From: an uncultured Nitrososphaeraceae archaeon
Lineage (GTDB): Archaea > Thermoproteota > Nitrososphaeria > Nitrososphaerales > Nitrososphaeraceae
Length of the DNA stretch: 64,000 nt
Assembly: GCA_963765895.1 (NCBI GenBank)
Contig: CAVXZB010000024.1
Coordinates: 201,943 to 265,942, forward strand
Direction: 5' to 3'
The first letter of the stretch is position 1, and the number at the start of each line of letters is the position of its first letter. The notes below the pieces were generated by a model. That model did no database searches. It worked only from the letters and a program-made list of their open reading frames with translations, and was not told the DNA's origin. This document shows, in pieces, positions 11,261-35,140 of this stretch. A program made the translations under genes and the position numbers.

Positions 11261-11688
11261 CACAGGTGCGTCTTGAGATGGTTGGACTCATTACTGTTGA
11301 AGAGAAAATCAGAGTAGTAAAGGAAACCTGGTCGACCGGAAGGCTTATTGATGAACTATTCTTGGAGCTCGACAATGCAAAGGAAATAGATGAAAAAGGT
11401 GGCATATCCAAAAGGAAGTATAGTAACGATACTAATTCCATTACAAAGTATGGGGCATTACATACCATTTTTAATCTATACAAATTGGATAGAATACCAA
11501 ATCAAGGGATCGTTATTGTCTATCATGGTACGAGGCCAGCCAATGATCTGGGCTTTATTCAGAAATATGAAACATATGATTACTCAGAAAATGAAGCTAA
11601 AAAAATTCATCAGCATAAATTCGATTCTGAGTTAATAAACCGACAAGTCGATTCTATTCTCGGTCAAAAACTGGGGTTTGCACATTGA
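11248..11688 (+). CDS. Hypothetical protein (element backbone)
   Basis: 146 aa ORF overlapping the primase start. Confidence 0.55.
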   Translation: MCVIAQVRLEMVGLITVEEKIRVVKETWSTGRLIDELFLELDNAKEIDEKGGISKRKYSNDTNSITKYGALHTIFNLYKLDRIPNQGIVIVYHGTRPANDLGFIQKYETYDYSENEAKKIHQHKFDSELINRQVDSILGQKLGFAH

Positions 11689-14042
11689 GTATGGATAATG
11701 TGCTAGCTATGATTGCTAAGTATGGTCCGGATCCTGAATCCTCCTCTTTTGCTTCTCGTCACGATGCGATAGCATATCATAATATTTGGGCCGATTTTTG
11801 GCGTTACAATATAGGAGTCAACGTCATACCATCTGATACTAAAAATAAGAAACCAGTAGTTCCATGGTTTGGATGGCAAAGCAAAGCAATACCAGAGTCA
11901 TTGCATCGCCAATGGAAAACAGAAGGCCTATTTTCAAATGGGATTGCTGTTATATTGGGGAAAGTCTGGCACAGACAAGATCTGGCTCATTATTACCTGG
12001 TTGGAGTGGACGCGGATAACAAGAAAGCTATTGACGAAATTTGTAATTATAATGGAGAGGAATTTGCTGCGAAAACCTTAGTTGAACAGCATAGAGATAA
12101 TCCCGCTAAAGCTCATTTTTATTTTTATGCTACAAGACCGATTAAAGGTAAGAGTAGCGATAATGCTCTACTAGCCCACAGGCTTTCGACCAACGAAATA
12201 CCTGCAATAGAGATCAAAAGCCTTGGCAGCCATGGGATTCTGTATTGCTCCGGCTCTTTTCATAAAGATGGATACAATTATGAAATTATAGGATCACGTA
12301 AACCAGCAATATTAAATGAATTACAAACCGCAGAGCTAGAAAACCACTTTAACAATATTTTTAACAAATATATGATAAGTTATCTCTCCGTAGGTAGCGC
12401 AGATAATTCAGCAAGTGCAAAAACAAAGTTACCAATAGAAGAGCTTTTCAAGCCAGTCTATAAAGTGCTGGAGGGCCATAATCGACATGAGGCATTGTTA
12501 CGGGTGATAGAATCACTTACTTCGCGACCGTAATATTTTCTCACTGGAGGAAATAAAACAGTTATCGAAGAACTGGAACAACACTCATTGTATGCCGCCA
12601 CTTGATGATAGAGAGTTGGAAGGACAATGGAAATGTGCCCTAGAATTTATTGCGCCAAAACAAAGGCAATCATCATGGCAAAACGATATTGGGTCCCAAG
12701 ATCACAATCAAAGCATTACTGCTGAAGAAAGACAACAGGAACAAAATTCGCATCCAGTTAGTGAACTAGCCGAGAAAATAATGTCTCGGTATATCTTTAA
12801 AACACTAGCAGACACTGAAGAGATGCTGTATTACAGAGACGGAATTTATCATTCAGGTGGAGAACAAATAATCAAGACAGAGCTGGAAAAAATTGCCGGT
12901 TATTCGATTAAAATTAATCAGCGAAATGAGATTATAGCTCATATAAAGTACCGGACAATTGTAAACAGGGAAGAATTTGACAAGAATGAGTCAGTTATTA
13001 ATGTGAAAAATGGTTTATTAGATATAACGACTGGAGAAATTAGGCCACACAAGCATGATTATTTGTCGATCATCCAGTCGCCAGTGACGTACGATCCTCG
13101 CGCTACCTGTCCCCGAGTAATCAAGTTCCTAACTGGAGTAAAACAAGAGATGGGATTTCAACTCTTGTAAGATTATTTGGGTATTGTCTATACAGGAGCC
13201 CGCGTTACGAGAAAGCAATTATGTTAGTTGGTCCAGGCAGAAATGGCAAAAGCGTTCTCATCAAACTAATTGAAGCTTTAGTAGGAAAGCATAATGTAAG
13301 TCATGCAAGCCTACAGGAATTGTTAGGAGATAGGTTCGCAAGTGCAGATCTCAATTGTAAACTTGTTAACGTTTTCGCTGACCTTGAAGCGGATAAACTA
13401 GTAAATACTGGTAGGTTCAAAGCCCTTGTTTCTGGTGATAGTATCCGGGCACAACGGAAACACCAGCAAGTCTTTAGTTTTAGAAACTATGCCAAACTGA
13501 TTTTTAGTACGAATAAGATACCTGAATCTATGGATAACAGTTATGCCTATTATCGTAGATGGGTGATACTGCCTTTCGATAGAATTTTTGAAGGTGAAGA
13601 AGAAGATACGGATTTGATAAGTAAACTAACCACCGAAGAAGAATTGTCAGGTCTTCTGAACCTGGCACAAAGGGGCTTGACTAAACTCATTAAGGAAGGT
13701 GGTTTCAAAGAGACACCGGTAGAAAAAATAAAGCAACAGTATGAGCATAATGCCAGTATAGTAAAGCAGTTTATTGAGGAGCAATGCGTTATTGATCTAA
13801 ATAAACCGGACATCTGCATTATGGCAACCACTTTGCGGGATTCATTTCAAGAATTTTGTCGGACAAGGCATACTAAAGTGTTAGAAGAAAACATATTAGG
13901 AAAAGAGTTGGCACAACAAGGCATACTAAAGGATCGTATAATGAAGAACAAGAAACGGGAATATTACTATGTAGGAATCACAACAAAACAGGCATTAAGA
14001 GGTGAAAATGAGACGTTGATCTCTACCTCTACTACCTTCTAG
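11685..14042 (+). pseudogene. Bifunctional Prim-Pol + PriCT + D5/SF3 helicase (P4-type plasmid primase), split by two frameshifts
   Basis: NVIP..KKP, GVDAD, HFYF (Prim-Pol); NRHEALL...PPLDDRE (PriCT); INVKNGLLD (D5_N); GPGRNGKS Walker A, FSTNKIP, YYRRW; ORFs 11685-12533, 12592-13170, 13221-14042. Confidence 0.88.
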
Positions 14043-19800: not shown

Positions 19801-20096
19801 ATTCGTAATGAGCCTGAACCACAACACTATAAAACCAAACAAGTCCTTTCGATTTCAGGTTAGTCGTGCTCTGAGGCCATAGCGGGTAATGTAGGATTTG
19901 GTGCATCGTATCCATCATGAAATCGTTTGTCATATTCTCCGAACATATTCTTTGGAGCCATTCTTGGCAAGTCTTGCCCATGTACGAATATGTTTTTGTT
20001 ATTATAAAACAATTTTGTAGAATATTAGAACATTTAATATGACTTTATCAATGTGGAGAATTCTTTATGAGGTTAGACTTTTGTTAACATGGGTAG

Positions 20097-20151
20097 GCGC
20101 AAAACCTTGGGCCTTTTGCTGAAATGCAGAGGCTAAGCAAGGTTCATGTGC
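20097..20151 (+). ncRNA. Candidate structured leader RNA, copy 1
   Basis: Nested helices gcgca/tgtgc, ccttg/caagg, gcctt(t)tgc/gcagaggc; conserved at 31568-31623. Confidence 0.45.
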
Positions 20152-20190
20152 AGTTTGCTATTGATGGATGATTTCAATGGTGAGTTATAA

Positions 20191-20352
20191 GTGACTGATA
20201 AAGAAAATGAGAAAATCATGCCTCCATTAAAGATAATGAAAAAGAATGAGGTAATGAATGATTTGCTTAAACTACTTGATCTGGTTCAGAAACATGCTGA
20301 TAAAGAAGGGTGTGAACATTGTCTTGACATACTGGAATCTGTCTTTACGTAG
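20191..20352 (+). CDS. 53-aa CxxC micro-protein, copy 1 (below ORF-track cutoff)
   Basis: GTG start; ..NDLLKLLDLVQKHADKEGCEHCLDILESVFT; paralog at 31659-31823. Confidence 0.75.
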   Translation: MTDKENEKIMPPLKIMKKNEVMNDLLKLLDLVQKHADKEGCEHCLDILESVFT

Positions 20353-20619
20353 TGAAAAAGCTCAGTAGATAAAACGCCCCAATTCTTAGATTTTATAGGT
20401 AGTCGTGCCTAAGCCTGACACGCACTCAAACCATCGATTCAACTACGATACGATAGAATCCATCTTTGAAATATTCAGTATGTTTCTATGCATGTACGCT
20501 TGCGTTGCCTGCCCGGCTATCCTAACTCTAATACTAATGCCAATATTGTTGCCATCAGGACTATTGCCATTACGATAATTGTTCTGGTCTTAATCTATTA
20601 TATGCATAATAGATGCATA

Positions 20620-25754: not shown

Positions 25755-26070
25755 CAATAGGATAAAACTATCAGGACTTGTGTACTTAGCAGAATTGCCT
25801 ATTCTATAGACTTATATCTATAGATAGTAGCAATTAGTCAATTCGAATCAAAATACTTAGTTCTGTTAATACTCAATACGTTTAACACATCGGACAACGT
25901 CGGATTTTTAAACATCCGGCATAATTATTCGGAAAAAGCGTTAAATAGGATATGCGGCAGGCCAGATTATAAATATTATCAAAAATGTGCGTCCTATGTG
26001 TAGACTGACGTCCCAGGATGGTGATAAAATTTATGTATGCTGTATTATCACGAGGCACTCAAAACATCAT
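25755..26070 (-). repeat. Backbone repeat copy D (longest): IATIYRY mini-gene, promoter and conserved box copy 2
   Basis: Minus strand MFKNPTLSDVLNVL...LIATIYRYK; TATA-like atatttataat at ~25970; box gtcctatgtgtagactgacgtccc. Confidence 0.8.
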
Positions 26071-29707: not shown

Positions 29708-31058
29708 ATGAAGGGCCTTCTTACGAGCGCCATAGTAGTTATCGTTATTCTAATGATACTTTGTACAGGTACTGAATTCTTTTACCCTGGTTGGAATACC
29801 TGCTAAGACGCAAAAGCAGAGGGTCACGATTACTGCAATACTTGAAGACCAAGGGGATCCACGAAGATGGAACTCCTTATTTCAGCCAGCGCTACAAGAA
29901 CTAAGAGCAAAACATCCTGATTTAGAGATATTACTAAATGCCACGAAGCTTCCATATAATCAAGCTAGACCACACATGTTAGCTGCATTAGAGACAAAGA
30001 CTCCTATTGATCTAATATCTTTGGACCAAATATGGCTTGGAGAGTTCGCTCAGAAACGACTCTTGACTGATCTTACCAATTATACCAAGATTTGGGGAAG
30101 AGAAAAAGACTGGTACGAAATGAATTGGGATGGTGGGATTTATGGTGGAAAAGTCTATGGAATATGGGCATGGACAGATATCAGAGGAATATGGTATTGG
30201 AAAGATCTGTTAAGTGAGGCAGGGGTCAATCCAGATTCATTAAAGACTTGGGACGGATATATTGCAGCTGCAAAAAAACTAAACACAGTTCTCAGACCTC
30301 AAGGAATAGAAGGTATACATCTTACTGGTGCTAGTCATTCTCCTGATTTATGGTATCCATATCTGTGGATGCTTGGCGGTGAAATTGTGAAGATGAAGTC
30401 GGGACATCCAACAAAAGGTAGTTACTGGTTTCCTGCGTATAATAGTAGTGAAGGTGTAAGGGCTATGAATTTTATCAAGCAACAGGTCGATGCCGGGATA
30501 AAGCCGCAGAAAAATCATTATTGGGGATTAGAATTTATTGACAGAAAGTTTGCAGTAATGATAGAGGCATTACAACATCATATAAATGAGAGATTTCCAA
30601 TTACTTCGCCTGAAAAGCGAGCAGAATTTCAACAAAAAGTAGGATTCATACCAATGTTTCCTGTACCAAGTCCAACCAATGCGACCGCTAGTTTAATGGG
30701 AGGCTGGGAATTGGCTGTTCCATTGACGTCGATACATAAACAGCTTGCGTGGGATCTGCTCGCAATCATGCTAAAACCCAAAATACTTGCCCCATATTTA
30801 GGAGCACACTCTAATCTTCCTACACAGATACCTATAGGTGAGGGTCCATATTCAGGAGCAATATATAATACAACACCCTATTACGACCAATTGATCGCTT
30901 TACTTAAAGCAGGGCACAGTAGACCCAGTATACCTGAATATCCTAAGATAGCAGAAAATATTCATCATGCACTCGACGAAGTTTACTATGGCATGAAAGA
31001 ACCAAAGCAAGCTCTAGATGAAGCAGCTAATAAATCTGCAAAGGCATTAGGATGGTAG
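29708..31058 (+). CDS. ABC sugar-type extracellular solute-binding protein (N-terminal anchor frameshifted)
   Basis: DQIWLGEFA, YGIWAWTD, GGWELAV, RPSIPEYP, KQALDEAA; hydrophobic leader from ATG 29708 is out of frame with ORF 29976-31058. Confidence 0.82.
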
Positions 31059-31567
31059 CAACAGCAGATCATCATCATCATCTACTACTGCACTTATGTC
31101 AGTACAATTTTCTGTACAAGATGTAAACTAGTCAGTTTTCTAGTTGAGAATCTGGAGACAAAAATTCTCTATGCCACAGACTATTAAATGCTAACACTCC
31201 TCCTTACTGAAAGCTGATCGTAGAATTATGCTTAAATCTACTAATCCTAAGCGTTTCAGACAGCGTCGGATTTCTCATCAGAGGACTATGATAACATCGG
31301 AAATAGTGCCTACAAGATGTGCGGCATACCAAACACCCGTAAAATGAGGTATAATTTTTATTGATTGAGATTGATAATAGATCATCATAATGTGTATATA
31401 TCATGAGGCGCCAAATAATGTATTCTTTTGCACTGACAGGACTAAGCTCAGCCGTGGATAAAATTTTTTGTTCTTATAAAATAGTTTAGTAGAACAAAAG
31501 AACATTTTATATGACTTTATCAATGTGGAAAATTGTTAAAAGAGCTTTACGTTTTATTTAGGAGTAG

Positions 31568-31623
31568 GCGCAAAAACCTTCGGCCTCTGGCTTAAATGCA
31601 GAGGCTAAGCAAGGCGTATGTGC
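31568..31623 (+). ncRNA. Candidate structured leader RNA, copy 2
   Basis: gcgca/tgtgc, cctt/aagg, gcctct(g)gc/gcagaggc. Confidence 0.45.
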
Positions 31624-31658
31624 GGTTACAATTAATCACCATTCCAATGATGAAACTA

Positions 31659-31823
31659 ATGACTGATATAGAAAATGAGAAAGTCATACCACCATTAACG
31701 TTAATGACCAAAAGTGAGGTAGTAAATGATTTGCTTAAACTTCTAGATATGGTTCAAAAACATGCAGATAAGGAAGGATGTCAACATTGCATTGACCTAC
31801 TAGAATCTGTTTTTGAGCACTAA
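31659..31823 (+). CDS. 54-aa CxxC micro-protein, copy 2
   Basis: MTDIENEKVIPPL..NDLLKLLDMVQKHADKEGCQHCIDLLESVFEH; start set by homology with 20191. Confidence 0.75.
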   Translation: MTDIENEKVIPPLTLMTKSEVVNDLLKLLDMVQKHADKEGCQHCIDLLESVFEH

Positions 31824-31849
31824 AATAAGACTCGGCCGGTCGGGGTACG

Positions 31850-32085
31850 CTAGTTAAATATTGGACGTAATATTCAAGGTGCTATAAGGTGCCCATAAAT
31901 TGGTATCTATATGTAGTAGCAATTAATGGATGTAAACCAATGTCTTCAATTTAGTAAATCACCAGTAAGCTTTAACACATCAGACAGTATTGGGTTCTTG
32001 AAACGCCCAGTATAATCATATCGGAAAAATCCCTTCTAATACAGTTTTGTGGCGCACCAAATTATAAATATTTTCTAAAAAGTGG
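31850..32085 (-). repeat. Backbone repeat copy E
   Basis: Minus strand FFRYDYTGRFKNPILSDVLK../GLHPLIATTYRYQF; promoter-like gaaaatatttataat. Confidence 0.78.
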
Positions 32086-32426
32086 TATCATGTGAATAGA
32101 CCAGCTTGGTTGAATACACATAGATATTGATTAGATGACACTGCCCAAACATCTAAGTCATGGGCGGCGCACCAGCAACCTGTCTTCTCCCTATCTCCTG
32201 CAATCTAGCCGATAGTGACACAAGTTGATCTGATAATTGGGCTATGACATCATCCTTTACTTTATCGCGCTGTCCTAGTGACTGATTTAGATCTTCTAAT
32301 TCTTCTGCCTTAGTTTGTATATCGGCGCCTTGTCTTTCTAACTAATGGATATTTAGGAAGATTGAATAAGGCTCGATTTTGCTGAATTTTTGCCTAATCT
32401 AATCTGATAAGCAAGTATTCATAGCA

Positions 32427-32447
32427 AACTAACCAAACAGTTAGTTG
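32427..32447. other. 21-bp dyad site, copy 2 (candidate attR or operator)
   Basis: Identical to 8140-8160; just upstream of the tfb promoter. Confidence 0.65.
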
Positions 32448-32502
32448 GTAGTTTGTTACTTACTATACCATTTATATGTAATTACTTTATTACATTAGAT
32501 AT

Positions 32503-33468
32503 GGTGATGTTAGCGTAGATACAGACTCATATGGTAAAATTCCTCCGAACAACCAAAAAATAAAGGCTTCTGTTATAACAACATGCCCAGGATGTAAGAA
32601 CGAGAGTATAATCACCGATTCTGAATCTGGAGAGATCATTTGCAGTAATTGTGGTCGTGTAATCTCTGATAAATTACAAGATATTGATTCCGAATGGCAT
32701 AGATACTTTGTCGATGAGTCTAAGATAGGAACCAGGATTGGGAGTCGTAGTTCGCTCGCCCGTCACGATATGGGATTGTCTACAGTTATTGGCAGATCTG
32801 GCAGAGATGCCAGCGGTAACAAACTTGATGCAGTTATGCAGACCAAGATGAATAGGTTAGCTACTTGGGATTTAAGATCCCAATTACATACGCCAAAAGA
32901 TCGAAGTCTCAGACAAGCATTTTTTAAATTAGATGTTCTAAAAGATAAACTCGGACTCTCGGACAGTATTGTCGAGAAAGCGGCATATATCTATAGGAAG
33001 GCTCAGTCGAAGAAAATTACTCGTGGTAGAACCATCTCAGGGGTCCTAGCAGCCGCAATATATATTTCATGTAGAGAAATGGGAATCCATAGGACACTGA
33101 ATGATATCGCTGCTGCATGCAGTGTAAAGCGTAAGGAGCTGTCAAAAGATTTCAGGATCCTTTGTACCCGACTTGATCTTAGAATACCTCAACCTGATCC
33201 CATGAAGTGCATAGCAAAAGTTGCAAATAAAGTCAAACTAAGCGAGAAAACGAAACGGCAAGCCTCGCTGATCATGAGCAACGTCACAAAGGAAGAAATA
33301 TCTGCTGGAAAAGATCCTATGGGTCTAGCTGCATCTGTGCTGTATCTATCTGGAATTAAAAATGGAGAAATTGTTACCCAATCAAATATAGCTGCTGCAG
33401 CCGGGGTTACTGAAGTAACCGTTAGAAATAGAACAAAGGAATTAAGAGATAAGCTTATGCTTAATTAA
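32503..33468 (+). CDS. tfb: Transcription initiation factor IIB (TFB paralog)
   Basis: Zn ribbon CPGC..ITDSESGEIICSNCG in frame upstream of ORF 32770; HDMGLST, RGRTI, GKDPMGLAA, VTEVTVRNR; start codon uncertain. Confidence 0.9.
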   Translation, partial: GDVSVDTDSYGKIPPNNQKIKASVITTCPGCKNESIITDSESGEIICSNCGRVISDKLQDIDSEWHRYFVDESKIGTRIGSRSSLARHDMGLSTVIGRSGRDASGNKLDAVMQTKMNRLATWDLRSQLHTPKDRSLRQAFFKLDVLKDKLGLSDSIVEKAAYIYRKAQSKKITRGRTISGVLAAAIYISCREMGIHRTLNDIAAACSVKRKELSKDFRILCTRLDLRIPQPDPMKCIAKVANKVKLSEKTKRQASLIMSNVTKEEISAGKDPMGLAASVLYLSGIKNGEIVTQSNIAAAAGVTEVTVRNRTKELRDKLMLN

Positions 33469-34256
33469 TTCCTGTAATTTCTGCCTTTGACATAGGTAGC
33501 GTTGCCTGGTAGTTAGGCCCAATTTCTCTAATCGGTTATATGGTAAGTCCATTGAGGTATCGAAGTGCCCGAAGTAAATTATCTGAGATTGAGACGCTAG
33601 AATAGATGATATTGCCATTCGGTGTATCTCTTAGATATAAGATTACCATAACACATGATTTTTCTAACATGAAATTTGGTTATACTATTTAATTCGAAAT
33701 AGCAAGTATCGATACTGATAAAATCTCAAGAAGTAGAAGCTAATTGCTTTGAACACTAATTTCTCTTCTGTTTTACATTAGTGGTACTCCATGATTTTTC
33801 ATCTAAGCTTTCTCCATTGAGTCCTAGAACGTTTCTATTATTCAATTACAATTCATTTTATTTCGTTCGGAGTACCTGCCCCGCACAGATCATAATTCAA
33901 ATTTTACAAGCGATAAGTTCCGATTCATTTACCTAGCCTTAATGATTAGTTGTTATTGCTTGGGAGCAGACAAATAGGGATCTCGAGTCTTGCCTAGTTA
34001 TTTCAATGTTGAATAGCAATAGCATATCCTCGAAAATTGTTTGGACATACTTGTGTTGACAAGAATAGTCTGAACTGCCTGTTTCCTAGTTTGACATATA
34101 TAATTGGAATATTTGCAGAAATCACTATGATACTATCTTGACATACAGCCAGATTGTAATAGTAACACTACTAGTTTTTCCAATTGGGAAGCTTGAAACA
34201 AATTCCAAGAAATGTAGCATATATTGTACTAATTCGCATACAGTACTTATACTAAA

Positions 34257-35140
34257 TTGGCAAAATTAGTTATAGTTACGGGGGCATCTAGTGGTATCGG
34301 TAAAAAGACCGTTATGAGGTTACTTGAATCTGGATATCAAGTTATTGGACTAGCTAGACGATTTGATAAACTAGCTGCTGAGCAGTTACAATCATCACAT
34401 AAGATACAGTCTAACGGGAGTTACAAGCACACCTATGTACCATTGGAATTTGATATCGCTAAACCAAAAGTTTTCACTGAGGTTATAGACAGAATTGTCT
34501 CTATAACCAATGGTAGTGAAATCTATGGTCTTGTAAATAATGCAGGCTACCTTGAGCCTGGAGCAATTGAAGATTTGACTATGACAAACTTGAGAGATCA
34601 ATTTGAAACAAATTTCTTTGGCCATGTAGATTTTACAAAAAAGTACTTGCATTGATGGTGGAACGAAACCAATCAGGCGGGAGAATTATAAATGTTAGCT
34701 CATTTGCAGGTCTCATCTCGCTTCCATTGATTGGAGCTTATGCAGCTTCAAAACATGCACTTGAAGCGGTGTTTGATGCCCTCAGAGTGGAGCTCTGGAA
34801 TACAGATATCAAAGTCATAACCATTAATCCTGGTGTCATCAGTACTGGTATATATGATACCTTGAAACATAAGACTGAGGACATACTAAATATTAAGAAT
34901 GTTAATAAAACAAGATTTGTTGTGGCATATAACAGATATCTGCTGAATAATAATTATTACACAGGACTGAATCCAATTTCTGTAGCGAACGTTATTCTAA
35001 AGGCTGTTAGTTCACTGAAACCACATCACAGATATTTCGTGGGCTCTAGAAAAGAGATATTGATGATAAGGCTCCTGCCGTACATACCTGAAAAGCTATT
35101 ATTCACCCTACTCGCTAACAGAATACACTCCCGAACCTGA
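34257..35140 (+). pseudogene. Short-chain dehydrogenase/reductase, frameshifted ~34645
   Basis: TGASSGIG, NNAG, NVSS, YAASK, INPG. Confidence 0.88.

Follow-up and report, generated by a model that had tools for sequence, protein, structure and literature searches.

The stretch of DNA analysed here, hereafter the window, comprises 64,000 nucleotides of an uncultured Nitrososphaeraceae archaeon (contig CAVXZB010000024.1, positions 201,943 to 265,942), has a G+C content of about 37%, and belongs to a genome of 4.9 Mb in 88 contigs. It carries two homologous copies, A and B, of a compact unit in which a putative archaeal promoter, a leader with a predicted hairpin and a short open reading frame (ORF) follow one another on the forward strand. 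When window positions 19900-20450 were searched against the whole genome by blastn, copy A aligned with copy B at 79.5% identity across 356 bp (E 1.5e-78), the edges of homology being 19993-20346 in A and 31465-31814 in B, and the outer limits of the homologous units 19993-20352 and 31465-31823, respectively. The homology that the original prediction had proposed between 19995-20352 and about 31465-31823 is thus confirmed. The features of the two copies are as follows.

19993..20036, + strand: copy A upstream promoter region, conserved; contains the word AGAAYA twice, the second occurrence reaching into the BRE/TATA
20027-20040, + strand: copy A BRE/TATA, AGAACATTTAATAT, a putative archaeal-promoter motif
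20037..20057, + strand: copy A invariant box, covering the last part of the TATA box and the stretch that leads to a transcription start predicted near 20063
20097..20151, + strand: copy A leader hairpin, a predicted fold of three stacked helices; covariance-model match 77.4 bits
20191..20352, + strand: copy A ORF, 53 aa, GTG start; family profile E 1.4e-33; alternative internal ATG at 20236
31465..31512, + strand: copy B upstream inverted repeat (arms 31466-31480 / 31485-31499) and BRE/TATA, starting at the homology edge
31499-31512, + strand: copy B BRE/TATA, AGAACATTTTATAT
31509..31529, + strand: copy B invariant box; predicted transcription start near 31535
31568..31623, + strand: copy B leader hairpin, predicted fold; covariance-model match 79.8 bits
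31659..31823, + strand: copy B ORF, 54 aa, ATG start; family profile E 5e-36; internal ATG at 31704

The 21-nt box atatgactttatcaatgtgga is identical in A (20037-20057) and B (31509-31529), in agreement with its earlier description as invariant, and the three-helix hairpin expected in both copies was recovered by folding at 20097-20151 and 31568-31623. The same holds for the ORFs of 53 and 54 aa, which contain KHADKEGCxHC and begin 39 nt (A) and 35 nt (B) past the hairpin, as anticipated from the spacing of 35-39 nt. The inverted repeat upstream of the copy B promoter measures 15 nt and is 87% complementary. The neighbours of both copies had been described as decayed, which is true of copy A, where about 5 kb hold no ORF longer than 82 aa, but not of copy B, which is flanked by an intact solute-binding-protein gene and, downstream at about 32.5-33.5 kb, by an intact gene for a TFIIB/TFB transcription factor (Pfam E 2.4e-33). 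Nor are A and B a duplication of two, as first proposed, for the genome holds nine hairpin-bearing units as well as fragments.

Elsewhere in the window, Prim-Pol, D5_N and DUF5906 domains fall on three consecutive ORFs (11685-14042), apparently a split primase-helicase of the kind carried by integrated mobile elements, and a short-chain dehydrogenase at 34257-35140 is frameshifted into two overlapping ORFs (34257-34655 and 34652-35140). Outside the window, on the same contig (G000 contig C24:168102-168652), the genome's only amoA match is spread across three frames, which cover profile positions 1-86, 84-108 and 109-183, and there is a stop in one of them; this is either a broken gene or the result of local assembly indels.

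A multi-copy family restricted to one genus

The nine units with this promoter and hairpin lie on contigs C24 (two), C61, C42, C19, C25, C48, C6 and C40, the last being truncated at its 5' end. A six-frame profile search with the protein found 14 ORF loci in the genome at E <= 6e-14, and one marginal locus. Protein matches were obtained in all seven genomes of the genus (15, 15, 7, 6, 3, 2 and 1), a congener of 4.8 Mb holding a single, degenerate copy, while only 2 of 144 other genomes of the family gave a match, one a contig-end fragment and the other marginal (E 9e-4). A DNA search gave the same genus-restricted distribution, and a covariance model of the hairpin matched in five of the six congeners and in the same outlier as the protein search, with no match in 16 other genera.

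In a large protein database the relatives form 88 clusters, all short and unnamed, and the named relatives belong to Nitrososphaeraceae archaeon records. An exhaustive profile search returned 33 representatives at E <= 0.001, which are 29-101 aa long except for one marginal protein of 943 aa (E 4.9e-4). The small protein matched no family in Pfam, NCBIfam, PHROGs or PADLOC, with nothing below E 0.03 in the last three, and blastn of the unit against phage and plasmid collections gave no match. For RNA, Rfam 15 had no match at the gathering score over the whole window, and at E <= 10 the region 19900-20450 gave only three chance eukaryotic matches of 15-21 bits against cut-offs of 39-60, in keeping with the earlier claim that the RNA is undescribed. 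A literature search of titles and abstract openings found no description of the small-protein family. In view of these family-library, Rfam and literature results, we regard the putative family and its leader as undescribed.

The promoter region

The TFB gene beside copy B, the Nitrososphaeraceae records among the protein's relatives and an archaeal amoA on this contig mark the host as an archaeon and an ammonia oxidiser, and the promoter that the original prediction placed in the unit is therefore read as BRE/TATA. The promoter itself held up, with the BRE/TATA conserved at 0.87 among units, but it is of the archaeal and not the bacterial type: judged by its motifs, the region at the box is an archaeal BRE/TATA promoter. 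The unit consensus is AGAACATTT[T/A]ATAT, and an A/T-rich TATA box of 8 bp, with a purine-rich BRE directly ahead of it, is found in both A and B. A 32-mer of the family consensus, allowed up to three mismatches, matched the genome nine times, every time within a unit or unit fragment, and the reversed control matched nowhere.

Transcription from archaeal promoters starts about 25-30 nt past the TATA box. From this usual spacing, starts are predicted near 20063 in copy A and 31535 in copy B, which would leave a leader of about 125 nt. The neighbouring TFB gene offers a local calibration, with TTTATATG at 32472-32479 and RNA contigs from three studies that begin at 32509-32521, although RNA contigs cannot mark transcription starts. 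Among metatranscriptome contigs from four soil runs (90% likeness; window 29900-33500), the TFB gene was covered from this same point, while 30505-32440, including unit B, had no cover, and the data are uninformative on expression of the unit. The TFB paralogue itself (window 32428-33468) is a 328-codon open frame including an N-terminal zinc ribbon, in which an ATG, GTG or TTG in frame is reached no earlier than 32770. A relative at 97% identity is arranged alike, and the start codon may be non-canonical.

Conservation and pairing of the leader hairpin

The hairpin is an imperfect stem-loop in the middle of the leader, with a core of 14 pairs formed by CCUUGC/GCAAGG and GGCCUCUG/CAGAGGCU. The folding energy is -26.1 kcal/mol in copy A (z -3.1) and -23.4 kcal/mol in copy B (z -2.0), and an equally good fold arose in 1 and 6 of 200 shuffles, respectively. 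The differences between the two hairpins had been said to fall mostly in loops and bulges or to keep pairing, and most of them do: one is a C-G to U-G change, and the remainder lie in the loop and bulges. The exceptions are a closing pair that is lost and a middle helix that is shorter in copy B, where one base of CCTTGC is missing.

Mean pairwise identity over 48 distinct aligned units was 0.81 in the upstream region, 0.87 in the BRE/TATA, 0.86 in the box, 0.66 in the leader before the hairpin, 0.92 in the 5' outer arm of the hairpin, 0.89 in its core and 0.71 in the leader after it. The proposal that box and hairpin are kept while their flanks diverge is therefore upheld by the core (0.89) and the box against the two leader stretches. 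Both stretches beside the hairpin diverge about as fast as third codon positions, so the conservation is position-specific, which speaks against simple gene conversion. The comparison of units thus indicates clearly that selection maintains the promoter box and the hairpin independently of the stretch that lies between the two.

The covariation check proposed earlier was run on the 48 units and came out negative: pairing holds in 92.0% of 891 cells, whereas column shuffles give 92.2 +/- 0.2%, and 448 of 500 shuffles pair as highly as the real alignment. The covariation score was 0.069 against 0.075 in shuffles, and a double change occurred at one pair only, in two cells; as the hairpin columns are nearly invariant, the test is low in power. 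The diverged copy G002:C33 has one further double change, from G-C to A-U. When the pairing partners were slid by 1-3 columns, 22-47% of cells paired, compared with 92.0% in register, so that the complementarity is real but simply inherited. Only the two inner helices are well kept, the outer helix being unpaired at two of its pairs in 9-12 of the 48 units, and in one lineage (L076, L077 and L079) core mismatches go uncompensated. Two G-U pairs persist, the first in 46 of 46 units and the second in 36 of 47; because such pairs would be mismatches on the opposite strand or in DNA, they are a weak pointer to sense-strand RNA.

Within the genome, the hairpin occurs only in units (blastn-short), and two copies that have lost the ORF carry the most degraded hairpins (61 and 38 bits, versus 75-98 bits), which, like the double change of G002:C33, is a further weak hint of sense-strand RNA. 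Weak snoRNA matches raised the reading of a C/D-box sRNA, which was rejected: a C-box-like AUGAUGA is present in one subgroup only, and there is no D box at the right distance. A K-turn, a bulge-helix-bulge and a loop-leader pseudoknot were likewise discarded, their sequences being a misfit or without covariation. Taken together, the hairpin is probably a functional cis element. That it acts as RNA rather than as DNA is a serious possibility, to which we assign a little less than even weight.

The predicted small CxxC protein

Over 34 core codons (169 pairs from 20 intact units), the ORF has a dN of 0.081 and a dS of 0.56, a ratio of 0.14, so the dN/dS check suggested for it points to purifying selection. 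These 20 are intact, distinct units chosen from the 48 aligned, with broken, contig-end-cut and near-duplicate units and a few further intact ones omitted. Across the 48 units, codons 16-54 show a coding pattern, with identities of 0.89/0.92/0.76 at positions 1/2/3. By these measures of substitution, the predicted protein is shown to be a selected product of the unit.

Whether translation starts at codon 1 or at the internal Met16 is uncertain. Codons 1-15 lack third-position relaxation (0.82/0.90/0.89), and two units, L008 and L064, have an interrupted long ORF but a whole one from Met16, L016 being alike on a reading of the alignment. Favouring codon 1 are a dN/dS of 0.18 for codons 2-9 of intact units and one divergent branch in which Met16 is lacking.

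The AF2 model, built from a 40-row alignment (mean pLDDT 84.5), has a disordered N-terminus, a helix at 17-38, a short turn and a second helix at 41-51, the copy B helices being numbered on a 53-residue model without the initial Met. The model predicts two amphipathic, antiparallel helices with no membrane segment, and the CxxC sits between them, at the turn and the start of helix 2. The motif, G-C-[QEHK]-H-C, occurs once per protein; Cys43 never varies, and conservation is 90% or higher at His34 and Cys40. With pI 4.7 and 5.2, GRAVY -0.16 and -0.42, and a highest 19-aa hydropathy of 0.6, the protein is acidic and non-hydrophobic. A thioredoxin-fold CxxC oxidoreductase was rejected, as the 53-residue model is all-helical and there is no Pfam thioredoxin match. 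Foldseek with the AF2 model found no PDB match at E <= 0.001, and the best ESM Atlas match (0.75) was to an unnamed, hence uninformative, cluster. Prediction of a homodimer with Zn (two copies) scored 0.07 and 0.02 against a mark of 0.42, which gives no verdict either way.

The CxxC at a helix N-terminus, the His within C-x-H-C, the conserved His six residues upstream and some redox-gene neighbours suggest that the protein could have a redox or metal role, a possibility that we hold only tentatively and consider rather doubtful. The hint from neighbours is weak: some relatives of the ORF adjoin a Redoxin/thioredoxin-like gene, a thioredoxin-reductase-like gene or MsrA, but most neighbours of units are unrelated to redox (SHMT, M14 peptidase, methyltransferases, TFB, MFS transporter).

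Turnover and modularity of the units

The ORFs of A and B are both intact, as had been stated, but this does not extend to the family: the long ORF is broken in 3 of the 9 units of this genome (C42, C6 and C40) and in 16 of 46 complete units overall, from about nine independent events, with promoter and hairpin kept. The frameshifts of C42 and C40 lie in A-runs and may thus be sequencing errors. The same ORF core is found behind at least three other conserved upstream regions, one of which shares the AGAACATTTTA word and has a short hairpin of its own; the protein therefore does not need the hairpin. In G065:C279, by contrast, the leader with its promoter and hairpin stands before a DUF2795 gene unrelated to the ORF. 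ORF and leader behave as modules that recombine separately, with leaders swapped from gene to gene, in a family that turns over quickly.

On its minus strand, downstream of position 1501, G002:C33 (L141) carries the promoter, the hairpin and the ORF's first 19 codons, which run into an unrelated hydrophobic stretch, giving a 51-aa chimera. At six loci, among them L094:2637-2882 (-) and L013:1562-1804 (-), the family is represented by divergent 'type IV' members, behind which comes a convergent 80-aa ORF that overlaps slightly and is rich in Cys and His (CxxC...CxxC...C...HC...H...C; no Pfam match). Among the upstream neighbours of these members are a Redoxin/Thioredoxin_10 protein and a thioredoxin-reductase-like protein that is cNMP-binding.

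The copies of this genome share 75-95% identity, no two exceeding 95%, and are mosaics; the C42 unit, for instance, takes its 5' part from one subgroup and its 3' part from another. No terminal inverted repeats of the unit were found, its edges differ among subgroups, and the flanks of the copies have no common terminal motif. A MITE or IS end was rejected on the absence of terminal inverted repeats and the differing edges. At 13 loci of this genome there are no recurrent neighbour genes, and no recurring transposase or integrase lies nearby.

Copy B sits in a patchwork of dispersed repeats, elements 2 and 3, and in the relative G033, whose TFB region is 97% identical, the DNA upstream of 32427 is unrelated. 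Element 2 (window 31901-32131 and 25814-25977) is about 180 bp long, has 26 long copies in the genome and ends in the TATA-box-like GGCGCGCCA-GATTATAAATATT; it follows the small-ORF unit in 6 of 9 copies, and elsewhere it is found by itself in front of genes, MsrA and DUF1326 among them. Element 3 (window about 32167-32391; about 200-225 bp) is present in 24 long copies here and in numerous copies in each genome of the genus, and its minus strand holds a 62-aa coiled-coil-like open frame without a start codon.

Discussion

In kind, the unit is a gene for a small cysteine-motif archaeal protein with a conserved leader, and it is very probably an archaeal small-protein gene with a promoter of its own. 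Going further, we favour, as a probable though not a firm reading, a self-contained small-protein gene of about 355 bp with a selected cis-acting leader, belonging to a genus-restricted, multi-copy orphan family. The BRE/TATA promoter with its conserved flanks would then drive a transcript starting about 30 nt past the TATA, the leader of about 125 nt, with an imperfect stem-loop in its middle part, would precede an ORF for an acidic two-helix CxxC protein of 39-54 aa, and the hairpin would act in cis on the sense transcript, by affecting mRNA stability or translation or by offering a site for a protein to bind. The small protein, for its part, may be a thiol-redox or metal-binding micro-protein whose action depends on association with a larger partner.

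Several known systems resemble parts of the unit. The C(P)XCG zinc-finger micro-proteins of haloarchaea (Haloferax volcanii) are shorter than 70 aa, have CxxC and no enzymatic domain, and are thought to act via partners. The present protein is likewise a small archaeal CxxC protein without an enzymatic domain, but its CxxC is the only one and it lacks both a CPXCG motif and a second cysteine pair, whereas one or two C(P)XCG knuckles give four ligands; it is predicted to be all-helical and not a zinc ribbon, shows no sequence similarity to them, and is multi-copy with a conserved structured leader. In the Rad50 zinc hook, a CxxC lies at the apex of an antiparallel helical hairpin, much as it lies at the turn between two antiparallel helices in our model, although here the protein is a stand-alone one of 54 aa. 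Rop/Rom of ColE1 plasmids is a helical-hairpin protein that binds RNA hairpins; the modelled protein has a similar size and helix-turn-helix hairpin shape and is encoded beside a conserved predicted RNA hairpin, yet the sole structural match, a Rop variant, was not significant (E 9.1). The leader shares with autoregulatory 5'-leader stem-loops in mRNAs of bacteria and archaea, such as ribosomal-protein leaders, a conserved stem-loop between promoter and start codon that evolves more slowly than its surroundings, but differs from them in having no covariation and no Rfam family.

The hairpin might instead work as DNA, that is, as an imperfect palindromic operator just past the transcription start, to which a dimeric repressor would bind, the box supplying a further site; the structure of the RNA would then not matter. 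Such a role would fit arms and a loop that are nearly invariant without covariation, a promoter with conserved flanking words and an inverted repeat, and the 3-nt insertion by which the core becomes a perfect 16-bp palindrome in C40 of this genome and in L062. We nonetheless consider it unlikely, as G-T pairs are conserved at two positions and one-sided changes often give G-U (34 cells), which is relevant only to sense RNA, the bulges leave the two arms unequal, and arms of 8 bp separated by a 9-nt loop would be atypical of an operator. Missing covariation and mosaic copies (C42) would also be expected of a hairpin without function, conserved only because its copies undergo gene conversion or have spread recently; gene conversion, however, would homogenise the adjoining leader too, and those stretches stand at 0.66-0.71 against 0.89, which makes this explanation most improbable. 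It is very unlikely, moreover, that the leader is itself a small RNA, processed or terminated before the ORF, in a dual-function RNA-plus-peptide gene: no oligo-T terminator follows the hairpin, Rfam has no match, and the hairpin is never found apart from this promoter or unit and decays where the ORF is gone, even though it is as conserved as coding sequence, persists with the promoter where the ORF is merely broken, and precedes with it the unrelated DUF2795 gene at one locus.

Spread of the unit within and between genomes as a selfish or mobile cassette, with conserved ends and hairpin serving that spread, would agree with the 1 to 15 matches per congener genome and the degenerate copy that is all the 4.8-Mb genome holds, with the many copies at contig ends, the dispersed-repeat patchwork of copy B and the roughly one third of units that are broken, and with the unrelated sequence upstream of the same TFB gene from 32427 in the 97%-identical relative G033. 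We judge it quite unlikely in the face of units that have neither terminal inverted repeats nor a common flank motif, whose edges vary by subgroup, that have no recurring transposase or integrase nearby, and that are old (dS about 0.56), none here being above 95% identical to another. The original prediction had offered a type I or type III-like toxin-antitoxin addiction module stabilising the island. The unit does recall type I loci in its small ORF, upstream structured RNA, many copies and frequent pseudogenes, but in such loci an antisense RNA overlaps the mRNA of a small, hydrophobic and membrane-active toxin, and the type I reading fails on the toxin, the protein here being acidic and hydrophilic (pI 4.7-5.2, maximum 19-aa hydropathy 0.6) without a membrane helix. 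The type III reading fails for want of tandem RNA repeats and a large toxin gene: in ToxIN-like systems an endoribonuclease of about 170 aa follows tandem RNA repeats, whereas here the ORF has 53-54 aa and there are no repeats. With no PADLOC match and no second gene, and with units beside housekeeping genes, a toxin-antitoxin function is hardly credible, and the notion of an island being stabilised is not supported, most units lying among ordinary cellular genes and not in a single island.

Returning to the favoured reading of a small-protein gene with a cis-acting leader, a bolder version of it would be an autoregulated, self-propagating cassette, in which the two-helix CxxC protein would bind its own leader stem-loop in a Rop-like, redox- or metal-dependent manner, while the module of promoter and hairpin could in addition be moved before other genes, as with the DUF2795 gene; we regard this as a long shot. 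Were it true, this genus of ammonia oxidisers would possess a post-transcriptional switch that is portable and responds to stress.

The ammonia-oxidising archaea of soil are difficult to cultivate, and small proteins and post-transcriptional control in them are almost uncharted. The present analysis defines an orphan small-protein family under purifying selection, with its promoter consensus and a selected leader element, in up to 15 copies per genome. To our knowledge, very few regulatory RNAs are known in this phylum, and the leader, if it is a regulatory RNA, would be among them; if it is not, the family would still be a useful marker of rapid gene turnover in one genus.
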